This document shows positions 1,893-23,821 of a stretch of DNA of 52,584 bases, piece by piece. Position 1 is the stretch's first letter. The number at the start of each line of letters is the position of its first letter. This DNA comes from Candidatus Bathyarchaeota archaeon (lineage in GTDB: Archaea > Thermoproteota > Bathyarchaeia > Bathyarchaeales > DTEX01). The position numbers and the translations under genes were made by a program. The stretch is from positions 1 through 52,584 of the forward strand of contig QMXE01000001.1 in the NCBI GenBank assembly GCA_003661975.1. Reading direction: 5' to 3'. Below the pieces are notes generated by a model. It ran no database searches. It had not been told where the DNA came from and saw only the letters and a list, made by a program, of their open reading frames with translations.

Positions 1893-2975
1893 ATGAAAAG
1901 GCGACTATCATTTAGAGCTTCCATCATAATTATGCTCCTCGGCCTACTGCTCTTCATATTATACCTATACTTTTTTGTTGGATTCAGGGATATCTTGGAG
2001 ATCCTTAGGAAGATAGATCCACTCGAATATTCCATATATTATTCCCTAACGATCATGGCAATTCTGTTAAGCATAATTTTCTATGCAATGACATGGCATG
2101 ACATACTAAAGACGCTCTCACTGAAATTGAGTTTGAAAAGAGCAATCCTTTATAGTTGGGTTGGAAACTTTGTTGATCTAGTCCTTCCATTAGAGACCAT
2201 AAGCGGAGAATTAACTAGGCTTTATCTAATTCAGCGGGATATTAAAGGCGACTTGGGAAGGATAGTTGCATCTCTAGTCTATCACCGCATAATCTCTATC
2301 TCAACAACGCTATTCGCATTAGCAGCTAGCTCGATCTACTTGATAATTGCTTATAGGATCCAATTGGGCATCACAATATTTCTATTAAGCGTCTTGGCAT
2401 GCACAATCGCCACAATAATACTAATTCTATATCTATCATTTAATAGAAAGTCCGCGGAAAGGATAGCCCACGGAATCATTAAGGTTGCCTCATTTCTCAT
2501 AAAGGATGAAAAGAGACTTGAGAGTCTAAAGGATAGAAGCATGCGTGAACTATCGGTATTCTATGATGCGTCTATAGTCTTAGGCAAGAATCCATGGATG
2601 CTGGCTAAGCCCTTCTTTTACAGTTATCTCTCATGGTTCTCTCAGTTCATCATCTATCTACTCGTCTTTTACGCATTAGGAGTCCCATGTATAATCTATT
2701 ATATTCCACAAATGATCGTTGTTTTCTCGATAACTCTAGCTGTTCAGACGATCCCTGTGGGATTTCCAGTTGGACTTGTAGAGCTCGTAATGACTTATCT
2801 CTACAATATCTTGCTCAAAACGTCTCCGGCGATGAATGGCTTAGCAACCTCACTGATACGTGTAGTCACCTTCTGGTTTCAGATATTAGTTGGCTTCATA
2901 ATCATCCAGTGGATGGGTTTGAGGCATGCAGTGGAATCGGGCTCCTTTATGAATAGAGAAAGAACACTTGAATGA
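1893..2975 (+). CDS. Polytopic membrane protein, UPF0104 / lysyl-phosphatidylglycerol-synthase-TM (flippase-like) family
   Basis: 360-aa ORF with about 8 hydrophobic segments. Its length and layout resemble the flippase-like UPF0104 family. Assigned by overall resemblance only. Confidence 0.55.
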   Translation: MKRRLSFRASIIIMLLGLLLFILYLYFFVGFRDILEILRKIDPLEYSIYYSLTIMAILLSIIFYAMTWHDILKTLSLKLSLKRAILYSWVGNFVDLVLPLETISGELTRLYLIQRDIKGDLGRIVASLVYHRIISISTTLFALAASSIYLIIAYRIQLGITIFLLSVLACTIATIILILYLSFNRKSAERIAHGIIKVASFLIKDEKRLESLKDRSMRELSVFYDASIVLGKNPWMLAKPFFYSYLSWFSQFIIYLLVFYALGVPCIIYYIPQMIVVFSITLAVQTIPVGFPVGLVELVMTYLYNILLKTSPAMNGLATSLIRVVTFWFQILVGFIIIQWMGLRHAVESGSFMNRERTLE

Positions 2976-3013
2976 AAAGGCTTTTTTGTGAATAACGCAT
3001 ACTTCTTGATGAG

Positions 3014-3355
3014 ATGTTACGTGAACCATTAATGAAATTAGCAATTGAATATTTCAGGAGGAGAGGATATAGGATTGAGAGGCCGGGGCAAAAGGGGTCA
3101 TCATCTACATCAGAAAGCTCCAAGATAGACTTTATTGTAGTTAAGCAGAACGAGATGCATCCGGTCCTAGTTAAGGAATGGAACAGAACAGTCGGCGTTA
3201 ACGTCGTAATAAACTTTGATAAGGCATCACAAGATAAGAGATTCTCAAATCCAATATTGATCTCTGAAAAATTCAGTGAGCATGCAAAGGCATATGCGAA
3301 TCGTAGAGGAATAAAACTTATCACGAGATCGGAAATTATAAGAAGTCTAGCATAG
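3014..3355 (+). CDS. Small Mrr-cat / PD-(D/E)xK restriction-endonuclease-like domain protein
   Basis: 113 aa. The pattern EYFRRRGYRIE..SKIDFIVVK..PVLVKEW..V....FSEHAKAYANRRGIKLITRSEI matches the layout of the restriction endonuclease (Mrr_cat) domain: Gly-Tyr helix, acidic ID strand, xK strand, C-terminal 'i.Li.g..l'. Confidence 0.45.
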   Translation: MLREPLMKLAIEYFRRRGYRIERPGQKGSSSTSESSKIDFIVVKQNEMHPVLVKEWNRTVGVNVVINFDKASQDKRFSNPILISEKFSEHAKAYANRRGIKLITRSEIIRSLA

Positions 3356-3381: not shown

Positions 3382-4479
3382 ATGTTAAAAGTAAAAAATA
3401 GGCAGATCACTATGTGGAAGAGGTGGATACATCCCCTCTGCGAAGAGCTTCAAATAGATAGTAACGGTCCATTTTTGAGGCTGAAAGATGGAAGAATGGC
3501 GACTATAGATCGAAATGGAATAAAATTCAGTAGTAATGATGGTCTTTCATGGAGTGATCCAATACCAGTCTGCGAGGGCATAAATGATAAGGAGCCATCA
3601 TCCCATGGTTTAGTTCAGACAAAGAATGGGACTATAATCCTGCTCTACTTGAACTTCACCACATATAATTTCACGTGGAATGATGAGCTCGGAGAACCGG
3701 GTGACGACTGCAGATTGGAGATATGGTCTATCCGAAGCTTAGATGGCGGCATGACCTGGATCGATAACCAGATGGTTATGGGCGGTTATAACGCGAACTT
3801 CTTCGGTTTTATTGAGACATCCTCCGGACGTATAGTAGCAAGTATAGAGCACTGTGCATCCGATCCAGGCCGTTTCATAGTAGCCTCCATATTCTCAGAT
3901 GATGAGGGAAAAACTTGGCACAGAAGCAATTGGATAGATTTAGGGGGACATGGACATCACGATGGAGCCCTAGAGCCTACACTCGCCGAATTAAGTGATG
4001 GAAGATTATTGATGCTTATCCGCACAAATCTTGATAGGCTTTGGCAGGCGATCTCTGAGGATGGAGGTAGATACTGGCGAATAATTATGCCCTCTCCACT
4101 CGATGCAAGCAGCTCTCCAGCGAAGATGATTAGGCTGAAGAGCGGCCTTCTGGTGGTTGTATGGAATAGGCTTAATCCCAAGGGCTCCGTATACCCCAGG
4201 AGGAAGCCTGGGCCGTGGCATCGTGAAATATCAGCCTCTTGGCATCGTGAAGAGCTCTCAATAGCCTTTTCTGAGGATGATGGAAAAACGTGGACTCCGC
4301 CCGTAGTGATCGCTCGTTACAGAAACGGGATATTATGCTATCCATACGTCTTTGAGGCTCATCCAGGCGAGATATGGGTGACCGCAGGCTTCGCTCTCAA
4401 TGAGAAGAGAGAACCTTGTCCGCTTAGATTGAGGCTCTACGAGGATGATATGCTAAGAGAGAGCAAAAGTAGAGGATGA
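3382..4479 (+). CDS. BNR-repeat (sialidase/neuraminidase-fold) beta-propeller protein
   Basis: Five Asp-box motifs S-x-D-x-G-x-(T/S/Y)-W are present: SNDGLSW, SLDGGMTW, SDDEGKTW, SEDGGRYW, SEDDGKTW. No signal peptide is evident. Confidence 0.75.
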   Translation: MLKVKNRQITMWKRWIHPLCEELQIDSNGPFLRLKDGRMATIDRNGIKFSSNDGLSWSDPIPVCEGINDKEPSSHGLVQTKNGTIILLYLNFTTYNFTWNDELGEPGDDCRLEIWSIRSLDGGMTWIDNQMVMGGYNANFFGFIETSSGRIVASIEHCASDPGRFIVASIFSDDEGKTWHRSNWIDLGGHGHHDGALEPTLAELSDGRLLMLIRTNLDRLWQAISEDGGRYWRIIMPSPLDASSSPAKMIRLKSGLLVVVWNRLNPKGSVYPRRKPGPWHREISASWHREELSIAFSEDDGKTWTPPVVIARYRNGILCYPYVFEAHPGEIWVTAGFALNEKREPCPLRLRLYEDDMLRESKSRG

Positions 4480-4531
4480 AAGGATCCTCTGCAAAAAGGT
4501 TATTAATTGAACTTTGCATTTATGCGCATAT

Positions 4532-5704
4532 ATGGAACCGTTCAACTACGAAAAATATAATAGCCTAATCGAGGAGAACAGGAGAAGGCTGGAGAGAGTT
4601 CAGAAGTTCGAGGAGCCCGATAGAGTTCCCGTTATAATAGGTCTTGGAGGCCCCTATTATGCTAAGATTTTCGGCTACACATTCAAGGAGTATTATGGAA
4701 AATTGAGGGTCATGCTTGATGTGCAGATCAAGGGGATTAAGTGGAGGATAAATTGGCTTAGAGATGATATTTCGTATATAGGCGTGAGTTTCGATGTAGG
4801 CTCGATAGCCGAAGGCATAGTCTTCAACTGCGAGATAAAGATGCCGGATGATGAGAATCCTTGGAGAAGCCCATGGATCATACCGTGCATAAAGAGCCTA
4901 GAGGATATTGATAACCTCGAAGTTCCAGATCCATATGAGCATAAGGGCATAAGGGAATATTATAGAAGATTTGAGGAGTTTAAGAGGCTTGTAAGGGAGA
5001 ATTACGGGGATCTCCCTGTTGGAGGCGGCTTGGGGATTCATCCGCCTGTTTCTGCAGCTGGATCTCTACTTGGAACAAGCAGACTCTACTTCTGGCTTTT
5101 AAAGTATCCAAACGAAATGCATAAGCTCTTCAGAAAGCTTGAAGAGACATTTAAGGTTTTAAGAGAATACTATTATGAGGTTACTGGAGCTGAGAGGGGA
5201 TATTTGGGGCTTGCGGATGATCATTCTGGATATTTAAATAGGAGGATGTATGAGAGGTTCACTCTGCCCTACAACTTAAGTCTATATGAAGCCTTTGGCA
5301 CAAAAGATAGATCCCTCCACATGGACAGCCACATGGAGCACATAGCAGACATAATTACGGATGTTTATAAGGTTAGAAGCGTAGATGTTGGAGTTGAAAA
5401 CGACATAAGAGTTCTAGCTGAGAAATTTAGGGGAAAAGCCATATTCAACGGAAACGCGAATTGGAGAGCTCTCCTAGAGAATTCATTTGAGGCAATCGAG
5501 ATCGAAGTTGAGAGATGCATATATTATGCGGCTCCAGGCGGAGGATACATCTTCGATAATGGCGGAGAGACATACGCAAATATCCCCCCGGAAATGCTGA
5601 AATATGAAGTGGAATATGCAAAGAAAGTTGGTAAGTATCCGATAAAACGTGGGAATTTTAAGCATTTAGATGTAATTGAAAGGGAGAAGAGAAAGCATAG
5701 TTAG
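4532..5704 (+). CDS. Uroporphyrinogen-decarboxylase (URO-D) / MtaA-superfamily protein
   Basis: The ORF track starts at TTG 4514; ATG 4532 (MEPFNYEKY) is the likelier start. The N-terminal PDRVPV block and a roughly 390-aa TIM-barrel-sized length are typical of URO-D-family proteins. No HxC zinc motif of MtaA was seen. Confidence 0.5.
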   Translation: MEPFNYEKYNSLIEENRRRLERVQKFEEPDRVPVIIGLGGPYYAKIFGYTFKEYYGKLRVMLDVQIKGIKWRINWLRDDISYIGVSFDVGSIAEGIVFNCEIKMPDDENPWRSPWIIPCIKSLEDIDNLEVPDPYEHKGIREYYRRFEEFKRLVRENYGDLPVGGGLGIHPPVSAAGSLLGTSRLYFWLLKYPNEMHKLFRKLEETFKVLREYYYEVTGAERGYLGLADDHSGYLNRRMYERFTLPYNLSLYEAFGTKDRSLHMDSHMEHIADIITDVYKVRSVDVGVENDIRVLAEKFRGKAIFNGNANWRALLENSFEAIEIEVERCIYYAAPGGGYIFDNGGETYANIPPEMLKYEVEYAKKVGKYPIKRGNFKHLDVIEREKRKHS

Positions 5705-5735
5705 GCATAAAAAGACTTATGATTTATCAAAGTAG

Positions 5736-6680
5736 ATGTGTGGAGGGAGAAAAGTTTTGTCCGAACAGAAGTATAAGAAGGCATTTATATTCCTTGACAC
5801 TGACAAGCATGCAAGCCCATTTGACATGCTCTTGACATTAGATCTATATCCGGACTCAGCAATCTGGAAATATGAGAATGTAACTGTCGAGGACGCTGAG
5901 AGGCTAATATACGATATTATATTTCCACGCGGACCCAAAGGGATCAAGCATACTAAAATTTTCATTAATGGCAGGGACATGGAACTTACAAATGAGATTC
6001 TAAGGAAGATTAAGAAGTGCATGTTTCCACCCTTCGAGCTAAGCGTAATAATTGATCCCAGAGGCGCATACACGACTGCTTCAGCACTGGTCGCAAAAAC
6101 TTTGGAACTATCAATGAGCAAAAATCTTGGGGACTTAGAGGATAAGAGAGTTACAGTTCTCGCTGGGACAGGGCCAGTTGGCAGAACCGCCGCCATGCTT
6201 TATGCATCCGAGAAGGCTGAGGTTACGATTACATCACGCAGTCTAAAGAGGGCTGAGGGCTTATCTGAGAAGATAAATAGAGAGCTCGATGAGGAGAGGG
6301 TGTTTGCGGCTGAGGCTGACACGCCGGAAAAGATAGGAGAGACGATTAGGAATGCTGAGATCATAGCCTCGACTGGAGCGGCTGGAGTTCAGCTACTCCC
6401 AATAAGCATACTTAAGGAGTATGGAAAGAAGTGTAAGATTGTGGCTGACGTAAATGCTGTTCCGCCGCCTGGAATTGAGGGACTAAAATCATCTGCGGAT
6501 GGAGATGAAGTTCTGCCTGGAATCTTTGGAATAGGAGCATTAGCAATAGGGAAGCTCAAGAATAAGACCGAAGCCGAGCTGATTAGAAGAGCCGCGGAGG
6601 AGCCGAAAGGAATATTCGATTATAAAGTTGCATATAAGATTGCAAAGGAGATTATCATGGAGAAGTCGAGTAAAATATAA
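5736..6680 (+). CDS. NAD(P)-dependent methylene-tetrahydromethanopterin / methylene-tetrahydrofolate dehydrogenase, MtdA-like
   Basis: Resemblance runs end to end with MtdA/MtdB-type dehydrogenases as I recall them. Shared blocks are the N-terminal FIFLDTDKHASPFD, INGRDM, the Rossmann loop VLAGTGPVGR, FGIGALAIGKLK and a C-terminal YKIAKE. An in-frame TTG at 5757 (MSEQKYKK..) may be the true start. Confidence 0.65.
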   Translation: MCGGRKVLSEQKYKKAFIFLDTDKHASPFDMLLTLDLYPDSAIWKYENVTVEDAERLIYDIIFPRGPKGIKHTKIFINGRDMELTNEILRKIKKCMFPPFELSVIIDPRGAYTTASALVAKTLELSMSKNLGDLEDKRVTVLAGTGPVGRTAAMLYASEKAEVTITSRSLKRAEGLSEKINRELDEERVFAAEADTPEKIGETIRNAEIIASTGAAGVQLLPISILKEYGKKCKIVADVNAVPPPGIEGLKSSADGDEVLPGIFGIGALAIGKLKNKTEAELIRRAAEEPKGIFDYKVAYKIAKEIIMEKSSKI

Positions 6681-6707
6681 AATGTAGAAATCAGCGATCT
6701 CCCCGCT

Positions 6708-7331
6708 TCAAAGTTCCTTCAGGTAATCATCGAGTATTCCCTTAGACTCAAGCATCCCAAGCCAATCTACAATTCCAACTTCAGGTTTTCTCTCACCCTT
6801 AATGACTGAGATCATCTCATCCACAACCTCTTCTGGACTCTTAGATGTTGTATCTATCTCGCATAACTTTTCAACTCCGCAGACATCTACGGCGTCAAAT
6901 AGGCATACATCCAGGATCTCAGCTGCCAAGTTCTCTATAACCTTCCTCCGACTATACCCCCTATCCTCCAGAGTCTTCTTAAGATCCCTCGGATCCCTTC
7001 TGAGTACAAAGATCAAATCAACCTTTTCCGGGGGAACTACATGAACCGCGTAGTGCCCCTCGATAATTATGGTTCTTCTTTCGGCATCTATGATTTCGCT
7101 GATCCTCTCAGAAAGTCTATCAGTATCGGCAATTAAAGTCTCCCTCTCCTTATCCCATCCAGTATAGAGGCCCTCCCTCTTAACTAATTCACCGATGGAG
7201 ACAAGTCTAGCCCCTAAAATGGATGCAAGCATCTTCGAAATCGAGGATTTTCCAACACCGGGAGTTCCAGTAACTATGTAGATCCGACGTTCTTGTCTTT
7301 GCCCTTTAAAACTCAAATTCTTCTCCCTCAA
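6708..7331 (-). CDS. Adenylate kinase isoenzyme 6 / Fap7-type nucleoside-triphosphatase
   Basis: Walker A IVTGTPGVGKSS, followed by ..IIIEGHYA.. and VLRRDPRDLKKTLEDRGYSRRKVIENLAAEI. This matches the archaeal/eukaryotic Fap7 (AK6) pattern. Confidence 0.75.
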   Translation of the reverse strand: MREKNLSFKGQRQERRIYIVTGTPGVGKSSISKMLASILGARLVSIGELVKREGLYTGWDKERETLIADTDRLSERISEIIDAERRTIIIEGHYAVHVVPPEKVDLIFVLRRDPRDLKKTLEDRGYSRRKVIENLAAEILDVCLFDAVDVCGVEKLCEIDTTSKSPEEVVDEMISVIKGERKPEVGIVDWLGMLESKGILDDYLKEL

Positions 7332-7510
7332 TATCTAATGGGCATATCAGCCTTAAAACTTTGAATTGCCATCTTATGTAGGAAATAATCGAGAACCCTC
7401 ATTAAGCCTACGAGAGTCGCTGAGCAAGATCCATCCAAATTGCGGATTAGAGAGAAAGTCTATCCGGAGATAGAAAGTCTACTATTCCTCCGAGTATCAG
7501 CCAGAACACA

Positions 7511-7878
7511 TTATGGCAACATAAACTTGTATGTTACATGCCCGAGTGTTAATTCGCCTTCACCATTATAGTAGATGAAGCCAATAATGGCCAATAGAGA
7601 TTCAACTCTAAACCGAGAGGCAATGTGAAGAGCCTTCCATCTAAGTCTCAATTTCAATTTTTGATTATGCTCAGCCAAGAAGCCTACAATAAGGCTCTCA
7701 CATGCCTTAATCACTAATATGCGTAGTTTATCCCGAGATTGGATCAGCCTGCATTGAACCAACTCCGCCAGCGAAATTACCTAGATGTGAACCGAAAAGC
7801 AGAGTCAAGAGGAAGACTATAGATTCCCCAATACTAAAGAATCCCTCAGTTGATGGAATAATATTTTACGCAGGCCAT
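7511..7878 (-). pseudogene. Possible decayed remnant of a small polytopic membrane protein
   Basis: Three short minus-strand reading-frame pieces abut. They are ATG 7878 MACVKYYSIN*, then ..STEGFFSIGESIVFLLTLLFGSHLGNFAGGVGSMQADPISG*, then the 83-aa ORF 7511..7762 (..ILVIKACESLIVGFL..). The G-rich TM motif followed by 'iK..E' recalls ECF-type S components. No single intact ORF exists. Confidence 0.25.
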
Positions 7879-7883
7879 TTATG

Positions 7884-9311
7884 TTAAAGCAGAATTTTTA
7901 TCTCGTCAAGTGCCTTTAAAACTCTTCTTCCTCTATCGGTAATTCTGAAGTATTTCCTTCCGTCTCTCACATAAGATAAGAGCAGGCCTCGATTGCAGAG
8001 TTCATTTAGGTGCTGATAAACCGCGGATCTCGTCATAATCCTACCAAGATCCTTCCAAAGCTCATATCCATATTTATCCCCTCCAGATAACAGTCTGAGT
8101 ATCTTCTCCTTTGTGCTGAATTCCGCTCCAAGAACCGCTGATTTCCTCTTCTTTGAAAGAGCCTGCAGAATATCTGTTGCCTTTAATCCACTTCCAGTTA
8201 TCAAGCATACAACAGATTCATCGCCCTTAATGATCGATTCCGTCTTGGCTTTCTTCAATGCAGCTATCGTCCCGGAGCTTGCGGGTTCAGCAAATATCCC
8301 CTCAAGCCTAGCTATTTCTTGCTCAGCTGCAAATATCTCTTGATCAGAGACTGAAATTGCCATGCCATCCGAGTCTTTGATTGCCTTTAATGCTAGATTC
8401 ATTTGAAGCGGATTTTTAACGAGTATTCCTATTGCATGCGTAAATGTCCCTTCAGATCCAAGATCACTATTAAGGTAAGCATTGACTATGGGCGAGCATC
8501 CCTCAGCTTGAACTCCAAGAATCCGAGGTAAATCATCGATTTTACCAATTTCACAGAACTCCTTAAAGCCCTTCCATATTGAGTAAGCCGTTCCGCCACT
8601 CCCCATAGAGACTACAAACCAGTCTGGAACTCCGAACTGCTCGATAACTTCAAATGCTATAGTCTTTTGAGCCTCTATAACCAGTGGATTTAGCTCCGGG
8701 GTCGCCTGATACCATCCAGTCTCCTCAACAAGGGCCTTGGCTCTTTCGATGGACTCATCAACAGTCTCTCCATGCTCCTCTATAATGGCATCATAAACCA
8801 ACATTTGGGCAAGTTTGCCCATATCTACGATCCTAGGGATTATCGCATGGCAGACTATGCCATATTTTGCACAATATGCCGATAGTGAGGCTCCCATATT
8901 TCCGTTCGTTGCGCATACAGCCGCCTTCATTTTTAAGTCGAGGATATTCGAGACTAACAGTGCAGCGGCTCTGTCTCTGAAGGAATTTGTTGGATTTCGC
9001 GTTTCATCCTTTAAGTATAATGCGGATATCCCAAGCTCCTTTGAGAGCCTCTCAGCTCTATAGAATGGTGTTCCACCCTCTTCCATAGATGCAACATTCT
9101 TAACCTCTGGAAGAAGAGGTCGATATCTCCAGAATGAAAATTCGCCGCTAAGATCTATTCCCTTCAATCTTTCAATATCGACCCTATACTCGACTAGACC
9201 TCCACATTTTGGGCATTTAATCACTGGAGGATAATCAAGAATCGCTCCGCAATCCATGCATTGAAGGTTACCCAAAGAATCTTCGCCCCAGAAGATAAAA
9301 TATAGCCGCAT
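7884..9311 (-). CDS. Threonine-synthase-like fold-type-II PLP-domain protein (Schiff-base Lys replaced by Arg) fused to a C-terminal PadR-like winged-helix domain
   Basis: N-terminal Cys4 ribbon (CMDC..CPKC). ThrC-like blocks are NPTNSFRDRAA (canonical SFKDR), ATNGNMGASLSAY, SMGSGGTAYSIWKGF, LEGIFAEPASS and CLITGSGLK. The last roughly 77 aa read KILRLLSGGDKYGYELWKDL..VYQHLNELCNRGLL..GRKYFRITDRGRRVL. Confidence 0.8.
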   Translation of the reverse strand: MRLYFIFWGEDSLGNLQCMDCGAILDYPPVIKCPKCGGLVEYRVDIERLKGIDLSGEFSFWRYRPLLPEVKNVASMEEGGTPFYRAERLSKELGISALYLKDETRNPTNSFRDRAAALLVSNILDLKMKAAVCATNGNMGASLSAYCAKYGIVCHAIIPRIVDMGKLAQMLVYDAIIEEHGETVDESIERAKALVEETGWYQATPELNPLVIEAQKTIAFEVIEQFGVPDWFVVSMGSGGTAYSIWKGFKEFCEIGKIDDLPRILGVQAEGCSPIVNAYLNSDLGSEGTFTHAIGILVKNPLQMNLALKAIKDSDGMAISVSDQEIFAAEQEIARLEGIFAEPASSGTIAALKKAKTESIIKGDESVVCLITGSGLKATDILQALSKKRKSAVLGAEFSTKEKILRLLSGGDKYGYELWKDLGRIMTRSAVYQHLNELCNRGLLLSYVRDGRKYFRITDRGRRVLKALDEIKILL

Positions 9312-9418
9312 AAATATTTATTTCTGGAATATTCTCGAGGATTTTCTAAGGCAAGGGAAAGCTTATATTTCATCCAGAGAAGATGGAGAAAACTTGAAGA
9401 TTAGAAGCAAGTCCCCTC

Positions 9419-11173
9419 ATGATGGATGAGAAGCCTAAAGGCAGGGAGGAACTCCAGCGGATACTTGAAGGAATAAATGGTAGGGGATACAAGCTTTATC
9501 GCCGCCTTAAAGGATGCTATGCTTGGCTAAAATACTTTTCTACATGGATCACGTTCAAGGCGAAACTTTCGCCCCTCCCAGCAGGCTAAGAGTTAGGATC
9601 CCCCCAGAAAATCGCAGGCTTCCCTAAGGATACATACAATAATAGGAGCAGGGAAATCGCGCTTCGTGGCTTCTTAACTCGCCGATTCCACGAGGCCTGC
9701 AAAATTTTGTGGAGGAAAGCGGGGAACGGGGAACAGCGGCCTCATAACCATAAAGGAGCCAAGTCAGGAAATCCTTGAAAGAAACTCCGTGATAGTTAAT
9801 GAGGACTTTGTAGAGGCGAGATTCACAGCGGGACTTCCAGCCCATGGAAGAAGAATAGACGGCAAAACAGCGAAAAACATGTTTTTTAAGGAAATACCAC
9901 GCATAGTTGAGCGATCACTTATCTTCCAGAATCTAGACGTGAAGAAGCTCTATGAGCATGTGGAGGTCGCCGAAGACGCGGATTATCTGCGAAGCCGCCT
10001 AGAAGAAATGGACTTGATAGCCTTTATAGCTGATGGGTCAATTCTGCCTAGGGCTAGCGGAGTAGACCCTAGACCCATGGATAGGAGGATTGCTGTGCCC
10101 TTCAAGTCACCAAAATCCTTGAGGATAAAGATTAAACTGCCAAACAGAGGCCTAGTTACCGGAATGGGCATACCTGAAGGTGTAACATTAATTGTAGGCG
10201 GAGGCTATCACGGCAAATCCACCCTGCTAAAGCGCTAGAGCTAGGAGTCTATAATCATATTCCAGGCGACGGCAGGGAGCTCGTGGTGACACATCCATCC
10301 GCGGTTAAAGTTAGGGCTGAGGATGGAAGGCGAATTGAGCATGTCAACCTTAAACCTTTCATCTCAAATCTTCCCGCCGTCAACCTTATCTTTGGGAATC
10401 ATATTCCAGTCGACAGAGGCCTTCTCCACGGAGAATGCTAGCGGTAGCACTTCTCAGGCAGCTAACATCATTGAAGCATTAGAGATGGGGACTAAAGTTC
10501 TCCTCATCGACGAGGATTCCTCAGCCACAAACCTCATGTTTAGGGATAGACGCATGCAGGAGCTAGTTCCCAAAGATAAGGAGCCCATCAACACATTAAT
10601 CGACAAGATTCGCCAGCTCTACGTGGAGAAGGATGTTTCATCAGTCATAGTTACGGGGAGCTCAGGCGAATACTTCGATGTGGCTGACTGTATAATCTGC
10701 ATGGTAGAGTATACCCCTCACGATTTGACGGATGAAGCTCGAAAGATCGCTGAAAAATATCCTTCTATGCGCAGATATGAGGGGGAAGGATTCTTTGGCG
10801 AGATCGTCAGCCGCATCCCGTTGCCTCAGAGCTTCCAATTAACGAGACCCGGCAAGAACTTAAGACTTCAATTAGGGGAGTTCATCTGGCAAAGCTTGGA
10901 GATCACATGTTAAATCTTTGGGCTTTAGAGCAACTGGTAGATATTGGGCAAGCAAGGGCCATTATTGACGCAATAATTTATGCTAGGAAATATGCGGATG
11001 GAAAACGTAGTTTACGGGAAATCGTCGAACAAGTTTTAAGGGATATAGATGAAAAAGGACTGGACATTTTAAATCCTAAGATTTCGGGATGCTATGCCGC
11101 CTTTAGAAAATTTGAGTTGGCAGCAGCCATAAATAGGCTTCCAACCCTAAAAGTTAAGCCAAGTAGAAAGTAG
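9419..11173 (+). pseudogene. ABC_ATPase-family gene (predicted ATPase of the ABC class), multiply frameshifted
   Basis: Family blocks are spread over all three + frames. They include GRGYKLYRRLKG, YMDHVQGETFAPPSRLRVRIP, AGFPKDTYNNRSREIALRGFLTRRF, SGLITIKEPSQEILERNSV..ARFTAGLPAHGRRIDG, GVTLIVGGGYHGKSTLL, KALELGVYNHIPGDGRELVV..PFISNLP, FSTENASGSTSQAANIIEALEMG..LLIDEDSSATN, and LEQLVD..Q..AI with a C-terminal AAAINRLP. At least six frame breaks are present. Confidence 0.8.
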
Positions 11174-21826: not shown

Positions 21827-22417
21827 ATGACATCGATTTTGCCGCAAAATGAATTACTGTTATATTTAACCATGAAAAAACTACTTTCAGGTGATGAGAT
21901 GCGCGTTGAATCATGCATTGCCGAAGATTTCATTTCGATGATCTCAAAATTAATCTCTAAGCTTGGCTTAGGCGAGGCTGTTGGGAAGATATTCACTTCT
22001 CTACTGCTTCATGGAGGATACCTAACGCAGGATGAACTTACCCGGTTGACTGGTTATAGCACAGGTCTCATTAGCAGTAGTCTCTCATTTCTCGAGGCCA
22101 TCGGCTTAGTCACTCATAAGAAGAAAGGAAGAAAAAAGCTGTATAAGGCTGTAAGATCGATTTTAGATGTCCTTGAACGCTTCTTTCAAGAGATAGTTGA
22201 GCGACAATTATCTTCCACAATAAATTATCTCAGGAAGAATATTTCTTGCCTCAGCGAAGAACATAGAAAGAATATGGAGAAGTTACTTCTAGAATGCGAA
22301 AAAGCAAGATTGCTCTTGGAACTAAATATTAAGTGCCTTAGGCAGATGAAGGCTCTTCCCCTTAAAGACTTTGCGGAAAAGATCAGATTTCAAGACATCC
22401 AAGATATTTCAATTTAG
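21827..22417 (+). CDS. Winged-helix transcriptional regulator, GbsR/MarR-like
   Basis: GLGEAVGKIFTSLLLHGGYLTQDELTRLTGYSTGLISSSLSFLEAIGLVTHKKKGRKKLYKA matches the GbsR/MarR-type wHTH pattern. The true start may be an internal ATG (MKKLL at about 21872). It is divergent from the UbiA/GT4 pair. Confidence 0.6.
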   Translation: MTSILPQNELLLYLTMKKLLSGDEMRVESCIAEDFISMISKLISKLGLGEAVGKIFTSLLLHGGYLTQDELTRLTGYSTGLISSSLSFLEAIGLVTHKKKGRKKLYKAVRSILDVLERFFQEIVERQLSSTINYLRKNISCLSEEHRKNMEKLLLECEKARLLLELNIKCLRQMKALPLKDFAEKIRFQDIQDISI

Positions 22418-22558
22418 TATGATGGAAGATGAGAGATCCTTTAAGTCATGTGAGAGTTTTTTACAGGCCAAGATTACTTCATCGATTATTAGCCCAAAAT
22501 TCTTTAAGCAGAGGAGTATTGACTTTGTAGGGGGCTCATTCATTTGGATGGTGAGTTG

Positions 22559-23821
22559 ATGAAGATGTCATTCCATTTGGAGTGTATAGGTTGCGGATCG
22601 AGGTATGATCCCGATCAGGTGATCTATACTTGCAGAAGATGCGGTGATCTTTTGTCAGTTGAATTTGATCTTTCAGATGTTCCGGGGAATATTGAGGATG
22701 CTTGGAGAGGGAGACCTTTATCCGTTTGGCGTTATAGAGAGCTCCTTCCGGTGAGCACGTTTGAGCGTCGAGTGAGCCTAGGCGAGGGTGGAACTTCACT
22801 TAACAGATGCATAAGACTCTCCGATAAAATTGGATTGAAGAATCTTTACGTTAAGAACGAGGGTGAAAATCCGACTGGATCATTCAAGGATAGAGGCATG
22901 ACAGTTGGAGTTACTAAGGCCCTCGAGCTTGGAATGGTTAGGGTTGCATGTGCCTCGACTGGAAATACATCAGCCTCCCTTGCTGCGTATGCGGCAAGGG
23001 CTGGAATAGAATGTATAGTTCTGATTCCATCCGGTAAGATAGCATTCGGAAAATTGACCCAAGCCATAATTCATGGGGCTAAGGTAATACAGGTCAAGGG
23101 AAATTTCGATGAGGCTCTTAGGATAGTCAGAAGGATATGCCACACTCATAGAATATATCTGCTCAATTCAGTTAATCCTTTCCGTCTGGAGGGCCAAAAG
23201 ACGGCGGCCTTCGAGATACGCGACCAGCTATGCGGGAAGGTTCCAGATAAAATCGTGATTCCAGTCGGTAATGCAGGAAACATCAGCGCCTACTGGAAGG
23301 GCTTCATGGAGCTTCACAAGATCGGCTTAATCGATGATCTTCCACAGATGATTGGCATACAAGCTGAGGGTGCAGCGCCAATCGCGAATTCCCTCAAAAA
23401 GGGATTGGACTTCATCGAGTTTGTTGAGAATCCTGAGACGGTTGCAACCGCCATTAGAATAGGCTCTCCGGTTAATTGGAAGAAGGCTGTTAGAGCCATT
23501 AAGGAATCCAGAGGCACAGTGGAGAAGGTCTCTGATAAGGAGATACTAGAGGCTCAAAGGCTTCTAGCTCAGCTAGAGGGAATATTCGTTGAGCCTGCAA
23601 GTGCGGCTTCAATAGCCGGATTGATAAGGCTAGTCAATGAAGGCTTGATAGATAAGGATGAAACCGTCGTTTGCATACTTACTGGGCATGGGCTTAAGGA
23701 TCCAGATATAGTTGTAAGGCAGTTTGCAAGGCCGATCGAGGTTGAGGCGACTGAAGAAGCAGTTATAGATGCGATCATGAGAAAAGAGAAAATAGCTGTA
23801 GGCGTGCACTACTCAATGTAG
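22559..23821 (+). CDS. thrC: Threonine synthase
   Basis: N-terminal Cys4 ribbon (CIGC..CRRC), PLP-lysine motif NPTGSFKDRG, ASTGNTSASLAAYAA, phosphate loop PVGNAGNISAYWKG, LEGIFVEPASA, ILTGHGLKDPD. The ORF track starts at TTG 22544; ATG 22559 is preferred. Confidence 0.9.
   Translation: MKMSFHLECIGCGSRYDPDQVIYTCRRCGDLLSVEFDLSDVPGNIEDAWRGRPLSVWRYRELLPVSTFERRVSLGEGGTSLNRCIRLSDKIGLKNLYVKNEGENPTGSFKDRGMTVGVTKALELGMVRVACASTGNTSASLAAYAARAGIECIVLIPSGKIAFGKLTQAIIHGAKVIQVKGNFDEALRIVRRICHTHRIYLLNSVNPFRLEGQKTAAFEIRDQLCGKVPDKIVIPVGNAGNISAYWKGFMELHKIGLIDDLPQMIGIQAEGAAPIANSLKKGLDFIEFVENPETVATAIRIGSPVNWKKAVRAIKESRGTVEKVSDKEILEAQRLLAQLEGIFVEPASAASIAGLIRLVNEGLIDKDETVVCILTGHGLKDPDIVVRQFARPIEVEATEEAVIDAIMRKEKIAVGVHYSM

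Follow-up and report, generated by a model that had tools for sequence, protein, structure and literature searches.

Enzyme-derived vitamin regulators occur in Archaea as ThiR (a ThiN domain plus a DNA-binding domain) and RbkR (riboflavin kinase plus a winged helix-turn-helix, wHTH). Both join a vitamin-pathway enzyme fold to a DNA-binding domain and have palindromic operators near archaeal promoters. In the MocR proteins a GntR-type wHTH at the N-terminus is joined to an aminotransferase domain of fold type I, which has the lysine that binds pyridoxal 5′-phosphate (PLP). The regulon of bacterial PdxR contains pdxST, pdxK and pdxU, and MocR is not present in Archaea (PMC5320631). Here we describe a gene in a 52,584-nt stretch of DNA from a Candidatus Bathyarchaeota archaeon (assembly GCA_003661975.1, contig QMXE01000001.1; this whole stretch of 52.6 kb is referred to as the window). 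The gene is situated at positions 7884–9311 on the minus strand, and its product is a fusion of a threonine synthase (ThrC)-like PLP domain with a PadR-type wHTH. On sequence comparison and genomic context, it is likely to be a catalytically dead ThrC fold that together with its DNA-binding domain serves as an archaeal B6-sensing repressor. In the searchable literature available without subscription, no description of the fusion family was found, in agreement with an earlier note on this DNA that knew of no characterised member. An archaeal vitamin B6 regulator was not found described in that literature either.

The features of the fusion gene, and the window paralogue with which it is compared, are as follows.

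7884..9311, minus strand: ThrC-like/wHTH fusion gene; a start at the ATG at 9311 gives 475 aa, and one at the TTG at 9275 gives 463 aa

9204..9260, minus strand: N-terminal Cys4 zinc ribbon (C18, C21, C33, C36), from the sequence and the homologue alignment

8193..9089, minus strand: fold-type II PLP (PALP) domain of the threonine-synthase subtype, from PF00291, Foldseek and the kept cofactor-contact motifs

8976..8978, minus strand: codon AGA, Arg112 at the Schiff-base lysine position, from the sequence and the close homologues

8121..8180, minus strand: flexible linker between the sensor and DNA-binding domains, with a predicted local distance difference test score (pLDDT) <50 at residues 366–385 of the 463-aa model

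7890..8114, minus strand: C-terminal PadR-type wHTH (H-H-H-wing-H), from PF03551, the secondary structure of the model and PDB sequence matches

22559..23821, plus strand: canonical thrC paralogue, which has the catalytic Lys and scores 377.6 bits on TIGR00260 (cut-off 167)

Two Pfam domains are found in the fusion protein, PALP (PF00291) at residues 75–373 with an E-value of 2e-73, and PadR (PF03551) at residues 404–466 with 34.8 bits (gathering score 27). Profile searches of the protein gave no match to GntR or Aminotran_1_2. The AlphaFold2 model, built with 50 homologues (pLDDT 88.4, predicted template-modelling score 0.81), displays a ThrC fold that is followed by a disordered linker and, at the C-terminus, by a winged helix of the order H-H-H-E-E-H. 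The top Foldseek matches are the ThrC structures 2d1f, 2zsj, 6cgq and 1v7c, with template-modelling scores of 0.82–0.86 (target-normalised). When the final 84 aa are searched alone, they match the PadR-family PDB chains 3l7w, 4ejo and 9qbc. The earlier note had read from the letters of the sequence a threonine-synthase-type PLP domain, a PadR-like wHTH behind it, and a Cys4 ribbon common to this protein and thrC. Both domains are borne out by Pfam, the DNA-binding fold also by the model and the PDB chains, and the ribbon can be read in both sequences. The four ribbon Cys are invariant or nearly so across the aligned homologues. The TTG at 9275 is a possible start, as it matches the N-terminus of the 94%-identical homologue P0001 when N-termini are compared. 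An assembly join as the origin of the fusion is ruled out, because the same fusion is present in hundreds of other, independent contigs as well as in Thermococcales genomes that are complete.

The wHTH is homologous to that of the PadR family (PF03551), including the wing and the following helix, and a palindromic operator would be a further likeness. Canonical PadR proteins are ~110–180 aa and have an N-terminal wHTH, with phenolic acids or drugs sensed by a C-terminal helical domain, whereas the wHTH of the fusion protein is C-terminal to a ~390-aa enzyme-derived sensor. With ThrC (EC 4.2.3.1) the fusion protein shares the fold and the N-terminal Zn ribbon, and it is 39% identical to the window thrC product over 381 residues. 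It differs from ThrC in that the Schiff-base Lys and the substrate-phosphate residues are replaced, a DNA-binding domain is added, and the neighbouring genes are those of B6 transport and synthesis and not of threonine synthesis.

The minus-strand codons AAT TCC TTC AGA GAC AGA encode N S F R D R, and the window thrC has NPTGSFKDRG at the same place. The PLP phosphate loop also differs, GSGGT in the fusion protein versus GNAGN in thrC. Both differences had been pointed out before; the AGA codon at 8978..8976 in place of the PLP lysine codon was confirmed by reading the codon and by the homologues, and the loop by comparison of the two sequences. Among the 120 closest homologues (64–94% identity, Bathyarchaeia) both Pfam domains are present in all, and SFRDR is present in 118, which rules out a sequencing error behind the Arg codon. 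Thus both the Arg and the fusion are conserved in orthologues.

A phmmer scan of 1.84 billion cluster representatives gave 150 diverse relatives (50% identity clusters). These were sorted into proteins with and without the wHTH by a hidden Markov model built from the C-terminal domain. The residues at the Lys site in those with the wHTH (n = 75) are L (20), R (15), I (14), V (6), T (5), M (4), F (3), K (2) and S, Y, A and N (1 each), with 2 gaps, i.e. 71 of the 73 representatives with a residue at this site are non-Lys. Lys is present in 72 of the 76 proteins that carry no wHTH; of the other four, at least two are fragments. Loss of the catalytic Lys is thus tightly linked to the DNA-binding fusion in a wide family. 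In a rough neighbour-joining tree the fused proteins form one clade, which consists of a hydrophobic-type group and an R/K-type group. Parsimony on this rough tree gives at least 4 state changes between Lys and non-Lys.

Lys is the sole systematic replacement among the cofactor-contact positions of the fused family. The motifs N-P-T, S-F-x-D-R, G-N, K-T, the G-x-G phosphate loop, E-P and T-G-x-G-L-K are 84–100% conserved in the 72 fused representatives of full length; that these motifs contact the PLP phosphate, O3′ and N1 is established from ThrC structures. At the O-phosphohomoserine-site positions thrC shows ASTGNTSAS and NPFRLEG versus ATNGNMGAS and NPLVIEA in the fusion protein. In the T. 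thermophilus ThrC structures the phosphate and carboxylate of O-phosphohomoserine are bound by the STGNT loop and by the Arg in NPFR. This pattern is as would be expected of a pocket that holds PLP non-covalently without turnover of the ThrC substrate. An amino acid, O-phosphohomoserine and PLP had been named as candidate ligands. PLP, or B6 more generally, is favoured among the three. O-phosphohomoserine is disfavoured, since the fusion protein has other residues where ThrC holds the phosphate of this substrate.

The protein could also still be an enzyme, either a threonine synthase or one with another activity, dependent on PLP or not. Like BirA or RbkR it would then have two functions, and Arg would do part of the work of Lys. 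It passes the cut-off of the thrC model TIGR00260 (189.9 bits against 167.1), its active-site framework is highly conserved, some members have Lys, and all databases say threonine synthase. However, fold-type II catalysis requires the Schiff-base Lys for transaldimination and acid/base chemistry, yet L, I, V, M, F or T is found in most fused clades. The substrate-phosphate site is altered as well (NPFRLEG to NPLVIEA and STGNTS to TNGNMG), and a canonical thrC is already encoded in the window. Residual enzyme activity in the R, L, I, V, M and F forms is very unlikely on these sequence grounds, and an enzyme role for the fusion protein is given hardly any credence.

The genes adjacent to the fusion gene point to vitamin B6. 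Open reading frames (ORFs) were clustered in 80 Bathyarchaeia genome loci plus the window, 81 loci in total (loci carry L numbers and homologous proteins P numbers). In 60 of the 81, a gene for a ~246-aa membrane protein is found ~74 bp downstream of the regulator on the same strand. The membrane protein is an S-component of an energy-coupling factor (ECF) transporter, Pfam PF07155, with E-values of 5e-32 to 5e-33 (L045, L001); 176-aa and ~306-aa S-component variants likewise match PF07155. Its single PDB match is 4hzu_S (HmpT). Both known ECF B6 S-components, PdxU and PdxU2/HmpT, belong to COG4720/PF07155 (PMC9997740). HmpT is reported to bind pyridoxamine (PMC4860826); in the S-component alignment, HmpT Glu41 is opposite Glu and His84 is opposite Lys, with the residue roles taken from the same source. 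In L015, pdxJ (2353–3078; PF03740, E-value = 2e-95) follows the regulator instead of the S-component. This pdxJ, on a Bathyarchaeia metagenome-assembled genome (MAG) contig, contrasts with the report of Archaea with only the PdxS/PdxT route (PMC9997740).

The spacer between the regulator gene and the S-component gene contains a 22-bp palindrome, TAGTATAGTT-NN-AACTATACTA. A probe sequence for binding to the palindrome would be TAGTATAGTTATAACTATACTA. In most loci the palindrome abuts a TATA-like AT-rich box or is a few to ~15 nt past it, and it is situated 2–40 nt before the start codon. There are 62 sites with ≤4 mismatches in 795 kb of the 80 Bathyarchaeia loci versus 0–2 in shuffled sequences. 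When the S-component gene is displaced 0.6–4 kb from the regulator, the palindrome stays directly upstream of the S-component. The palindrome is also in the same place in L015, ahead of pdxJ.

A search of metagenome contigs for perfect palindromes gave at least 120 sites. Among the 120 matches listed, 111 are directly upstream of PF07155-type genes, which comprise three length variants (representatives of each were confirmed by Pfam). Three of the listed sites are at contig ends beside the regulator, five are unrelated and outside archaeal context, and the L173 palindrome is 18 bp upstream of pdxS-pdxT (SOR_SNZ 2e-102, SNO 6e-52). A regulator gene is found within 400 bp of 88 of the 120 listed sites. 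In L213 an R-type regulator gene is followed by a TATA-like box, a palindrome with 1 mismatch, pdxS and then pdxT. L173 and L213 have a common synteny of ABC_tran, ABC-2 membrane protein, palindrome, pdxS and pdxT, and the regulator gene is present before the palindrome in L213 but not in L173. Thus the operator persists without an adjacent regulator.

Two tandem palindromes ~27 bp apart are found in L054, L055, L062 and L064 (~17 bp apart in L051), with a 166-aa S-component behind them. The tandem palindromes, mostly in lineages that keep Lys, suggest that two dimers bind cooperatively. Riboswitch control of the S-component was ruled out for the leaders searched, as Rfam gave no match in the S-component leaders of 13 loci or in window positions 6500–10000.

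Since ThrC is the ancestor of the sensor domain, a regulator that senses threonine, O-phosphohomoserine or serine, with or without a PLP external aldimine, and controls amino-acid metabolism including thrC can also be considered. A Lys-less pocket would leave the PLP aldehyde free for an external aldimine with an amino acid, and GABA forms such an aldimine with PLP in the MocR regulator GabR. But in ~200 loci the operator was not seen ahead of any gene for amino-acid biosynthesis, there is no operator upstream of the window thrC, and the residues for the O-phosphohomoserine phosphate are not conserved. An amino-acid effector is therefore considered highly doubtful.

A second vitamin has to be weighed against B6. 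The effector of the same kind of regulator could be hydroxymethylpyrimidine (HMP), HMP-P or thiamine phosphate, with the S-component as an importer of HMP like that first assumed for HmpT. The name HmpT comes from hydroxymethylpyrimidine, and PMC4860826 calls its cargo, HMP or B6 forms, unknown. The main argument for a thiamine-type effector is a genuine thiL gene (TIGR01379 score 272 bits, cut-off 184; L092 7387–8379), which follows the ~306-aa S-component in L088, L092, L095 and L101 and may represent a B6/thiamine cross-link; this S-component consists of PF07155 plus an N-terminal extension and is behind a perfect palindrome. In addition, an AIRS/ThiL-like gene is found after the S-component in 107 of 210 loci (L001–L210), e.g. 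L036 8228–9253 and L089 6840–7865. The operator, however, also precedes pdxS-pdxT (L173, L213) and pdxJ (L015), the Baldrarchaeia regulator abuts pdxST, and no thiC, thiD, thiE or thi4 was seen behind an operator. The PLP-contact motifs are kept in the sensor domain, HmpT binds pyridoxamine as cited above, and the widespread AIRS-like protein is below the ThiL cut-off. A thiamine-type effector is considered unlikely.

The AIRS-like protein (AIRS/AIRS_C, PurM superfamily) is ~341 aa, and its gene comes after the palindrome-controlled S-component, sometimes with an Amidohydro_2 gene between. Its scores, HypE 135 bits and ThiL 104 bits, are below the NCBIfam cut-offs. It is a candidate archaeal B6 salvage enzyme or kinase, given that alternative B6 kinases are still to be found (PMC9997740).

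The preferred reading, that of a B6-sensing repressor, has parts of unequal strength. The fusion protein is very probably a transcription factor for the S-component and pdx genes, and a B6 vitamer as its signal is held with good confidence, PLP being most probably the vitamer sensed. We infer that the protein binds the palindrome and that PLP or another B6 vitamer is its ligand and co-repressor. The ThrC-type domain without the Schiff-base Lys would form a reversible, non-catalytic B6-vitamer pocket, with PLP foremost, and this pocket would control the C-terminal PadR-type winged helix through the flexible linker. A protein dimer would recognise the 22-bp palindrome before the PF07155 gene, or before pdxS-pdxT or pdxJ in some lineages; dimeric binding is expected because ThrC enzymes and PadR proteins are dimers. 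When bound there, the protein would block recruitment of transcription factor B (TFB)/RNA polymerase. Archaeal repressors that bind past the TATA box but ahead of the transcription start usually act by blocking recruitment, and a repressor role is expected here since the position of the palindrome would have this effect. With ample B6 in the cell, the genes for B6 uptake and synthesis would be turned off by the liganded protein. This mode, a ligand-bound repressor, is favoured with moderate confidence.

Like MocR/PdxR, the fusion protein appears to reuse a PLP-enzyme fold as a sensor joined to a winged helix, and its palindrome is before PF07155, pdxS-pdxT and pdxJ genes. The effector of PdxR is presumed to be PLP, as proposed for the fusion protein. 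Unlike MocR, it has a fold-type II ThrC domain, a Zn ribbon and a C-terminal PadR-type wHTH, and mostly no Lys. PdxR mainly activates pdxST, whereas the palindrome position in these loci points to repression. ThiR and RbkR share the logic of the fusion but differ in folds, vitamins and DNA-binding domains, and show no sequence relationship to it. The best explanation would be a convergent analogue of bacterial PdxR, outside the MocR family. The earlier note had suggested a pseudoenzyme fold with a wHTH as a ligand-sensing regulator, parallel to MocR/PdxR but on a different PLP fold. The suggestion gains weight from the tie between Lys loss and fusion, the adjoining palindrome and the B6 genes behind it, and the parallel holds for a fold-type II domain with a C-terminal wHTH.

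Several points weigh against the repressor reading or restrict it. Lys is kept in the same architecture by a Bathyarchaeia subclade (L054–L078), a Lokiarchaeota cluster and Palaeococcus, and the term pseudoenzyme is thus not universal for the family. A PF07155 S-component is nearby in the Bathyarchaeia subclade and the Lokiarchaeota cluster. Because L054–L078 share the same palindrome and the same S-component target, Lys appears to be dispensable for, and not incompatible with, a regulatory role. PF07155 includes S-components once predicted as carriers of HMP, the thiamine pyrimidine, and one lineage has thiL next to it. The palindrome was not found at 4 of 5 newly fetched pdxS loci, with L213 the sole positive, so pdxST would be in the regulon only in some lineages. 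The co-repressor direction is proposed from operator position and pathway logic. No B6 gene is close to the Thermococcales orthologues or to the gene of a 417-aa 'Methanomicrobia' form. Finally, the 52.6-kb window contains no operator site with ≤4 mismatches, and a position weight matrix scan of the window gave a best score of 8.2, compared with ≥19.7 for true sites and ≤12.6 for shuffled sequences. With no operator and no intact target in the window, function in the source genome is not demonstrable locally.

The probable local target has been lost by decay of the S-component gene next to the regulator, where two features are found.

7364..7859, minus strand: decayed PF07155 S-component remnant (pseudogene), from tblastn and alignment with the intact L001

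7857..7865, minus strand: deletion junction with ~149 bp lost versus L001, between TATTCCA direct repeats

By tblastn, S-component aa 39–81 are found at 7731–7859 and aa 90–208 at 7364–7717 in another frame. In comparison with the 93%-identical L001, the ~149-bp deletion took the operator together with the beginning of the S-component gene, from the start codon to about codon 40. The remnant also displays several small frameshifting indels and a loss of ~145 bp near the 3′ end. A sequencing error behind the broken S-component is ruled out, because there are two large deletions (~145–149 bp), one of them between direct repeats. The sequence indicates that the original local target was the site of the downstream S-component, now deleted. 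The regions 9312–9418 and 22418–22558 had been put forward as binding regions in the earlier note, but neither contains an operator-like sequence. The window thrC would thus be outside the regulon, as there is no operator-like site upstream. A tblastn search of the 52.6 kb gave no pdxS, pdxT, pdxJ or second S-component.

The S-component pseudogene, with its two deletions, frameshifts and missing operator, the lack of an operator-like site in 52.6 kb and a fragmented ABC_ATPase gene next to it would fit an orphan regulator gene that is nearing loss in the source genome, with its sole target and operator destroyed and no function left. The ORF, however, is intact and 94% identical to P0001, and comparison with the L001 orthologue gives dN/dS = 0.10 at dS = 0.30, values that indicate a regulator that is intact and under purifying selection. 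Targets outside the window are plausible because in other lineages the operator is found far from the regulator gene, at pdxST in L173 and at displaced S-components, and the regulator probably acts on targets elsewhere in the source genome. The orphan explanation is considered improbable for this gene.

The association with B6 genes is also found in other lineages, with different residues at the Lys site.

Baldrarchaeia (P0289, L206): L at the Lys site; pdxS-pdxT 44 bp downstream on the same strand

Odinarchaeota (P0392, L205): R at the Lys site; PF07155 gene adjacent and convergent

P0293, L207: I at the Lys site; PF07155 gene divergent and adjacent, 72 bp away

Promethearchaeota (P0144, L208): F at the Lys site; PF07155 gene immediately upstream on the same strand

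Lokiarchaeota (P0285, L209): K at the Lys site; PF07155 gene 0.6 kb downstream

P0310, L210: Y at the Lys site in the cluster representative P0135; PF07155 and ECF ATPase genes ~2 kb downstream

The Lokiarchaeota S-component is preceded by tandem TAAGTT-NN-AACTTA palindromes, the core of which, AGTT-NN-AACT, is shared with the 22-bp palindrome.

By source name the family members are from Bathyarchaeota, Lokiarchaeota, Baldrarchaeia, Promethearchaeota, Odinarchaeota, Thermoprotei and Thermococcales, the last including Pyrococcus horikoshii, P. abyssi and Thermococcus onnurineus. Their name in the source database is "threonine synthase". The NCBIfam model NF004170 (PRK05638), typed as an equivalog 'threonine synthase', spans the wHTH. 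The true members of NF004170 are Thermococcales fusions, nearly all with Arg (P0137, 799.6 bits; also P0314, P0316 and P0341). The window protein matches model positions 2–441 of 442 with 384.8 bits, below the curated cut-off of 421. This full-length match below the cut-off, and the same fusion and Arg in the true members, place it in the same broad family but in a neighbouring subfamily. Since the best NF004170 members carry the wHTH and Arg at the Schiff-base site, archaeal genomes are probably annotated systematically with a threonine synthase that is not one. If the reading is true, the 'threonine synthase' label and the NF004170 equivalog are systematically wrong, and the misannotation inflates the threonine-synthesis capacity predicted in archaeal MAGs.

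In its widest form the proposal is that the family represents the missing archaeal B6 regulator, which would be widespread (Bathyarchaeia, Thermococcales, Asgard lineages and Thermoprotei), of an origin independent of PdxR, able to sense free PLP without Lys, and would repress PdxU-type transporters and pdxST/pdxJ. We lean towards this wider proposal, though less firmly than towards B6 as the signal. It would be a clean natural case of a fold-type II PLP enzyme turned sensor, and the protein, the 22-bp operator and the regulon would be open to direct testing, including in the cultivable Pyrococcus and Thermococcus. It would also provide candidate archaeal B6 transporters and a salvage enzyme, with the AIRS-like protein of about half of the loci being an archaeal B6 salvage enzyme or kinase; B6 transporters and alternative kinases are acknowledged gaps in the pathway (PMC9997740).

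The Thermococcales fusion gene is found 5 nt after the gene for aCPSF1 (KH plus beta-CASP) and after the proteasome beta subunit gene psmB (L081/L082, P. horikoshii, 4410–8323; L083, T. onnurineus, 4427–8335). We take aCPSF1 to be the termination factor FttA. The genes psmB, aCPSF1 and the fusion gene look like one transcription unit, and no convincing palindrome was seen around the fusion gene in L081. In T. onnurineus a ribose-5-phosphate isomerase gene is two genes after the fusion gene.

In the window, the region above the regulator does not align with that of L001 (42% identity). It contains at 9419–11173 on the plus strand an ABC_ATPase-family gene (PF20446/PF09818) in at least four consecutive ORFs of different frames.

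9419–9589, plus strand: ABC_ATPase fragment

9789–10238, plus strand: ABC_ATPase fragment

10323–10913, plus strand: ABC_ATPase fragment

10907–11173, plus strand: ABC_ATPase fragment

The fragmentation is either a second pseudogene beside the regulator or the result of assembly frameshifts. Directly upstream of the window thrC and on the same strand, positions 21827–22417 (plus) encode a 196-aa protein with weak TrmB-like and DUF7343 winged-helix matches below gathering scores. This protein would be a more plausible local candidate than the fusion protein for any regulation linked to thrC.

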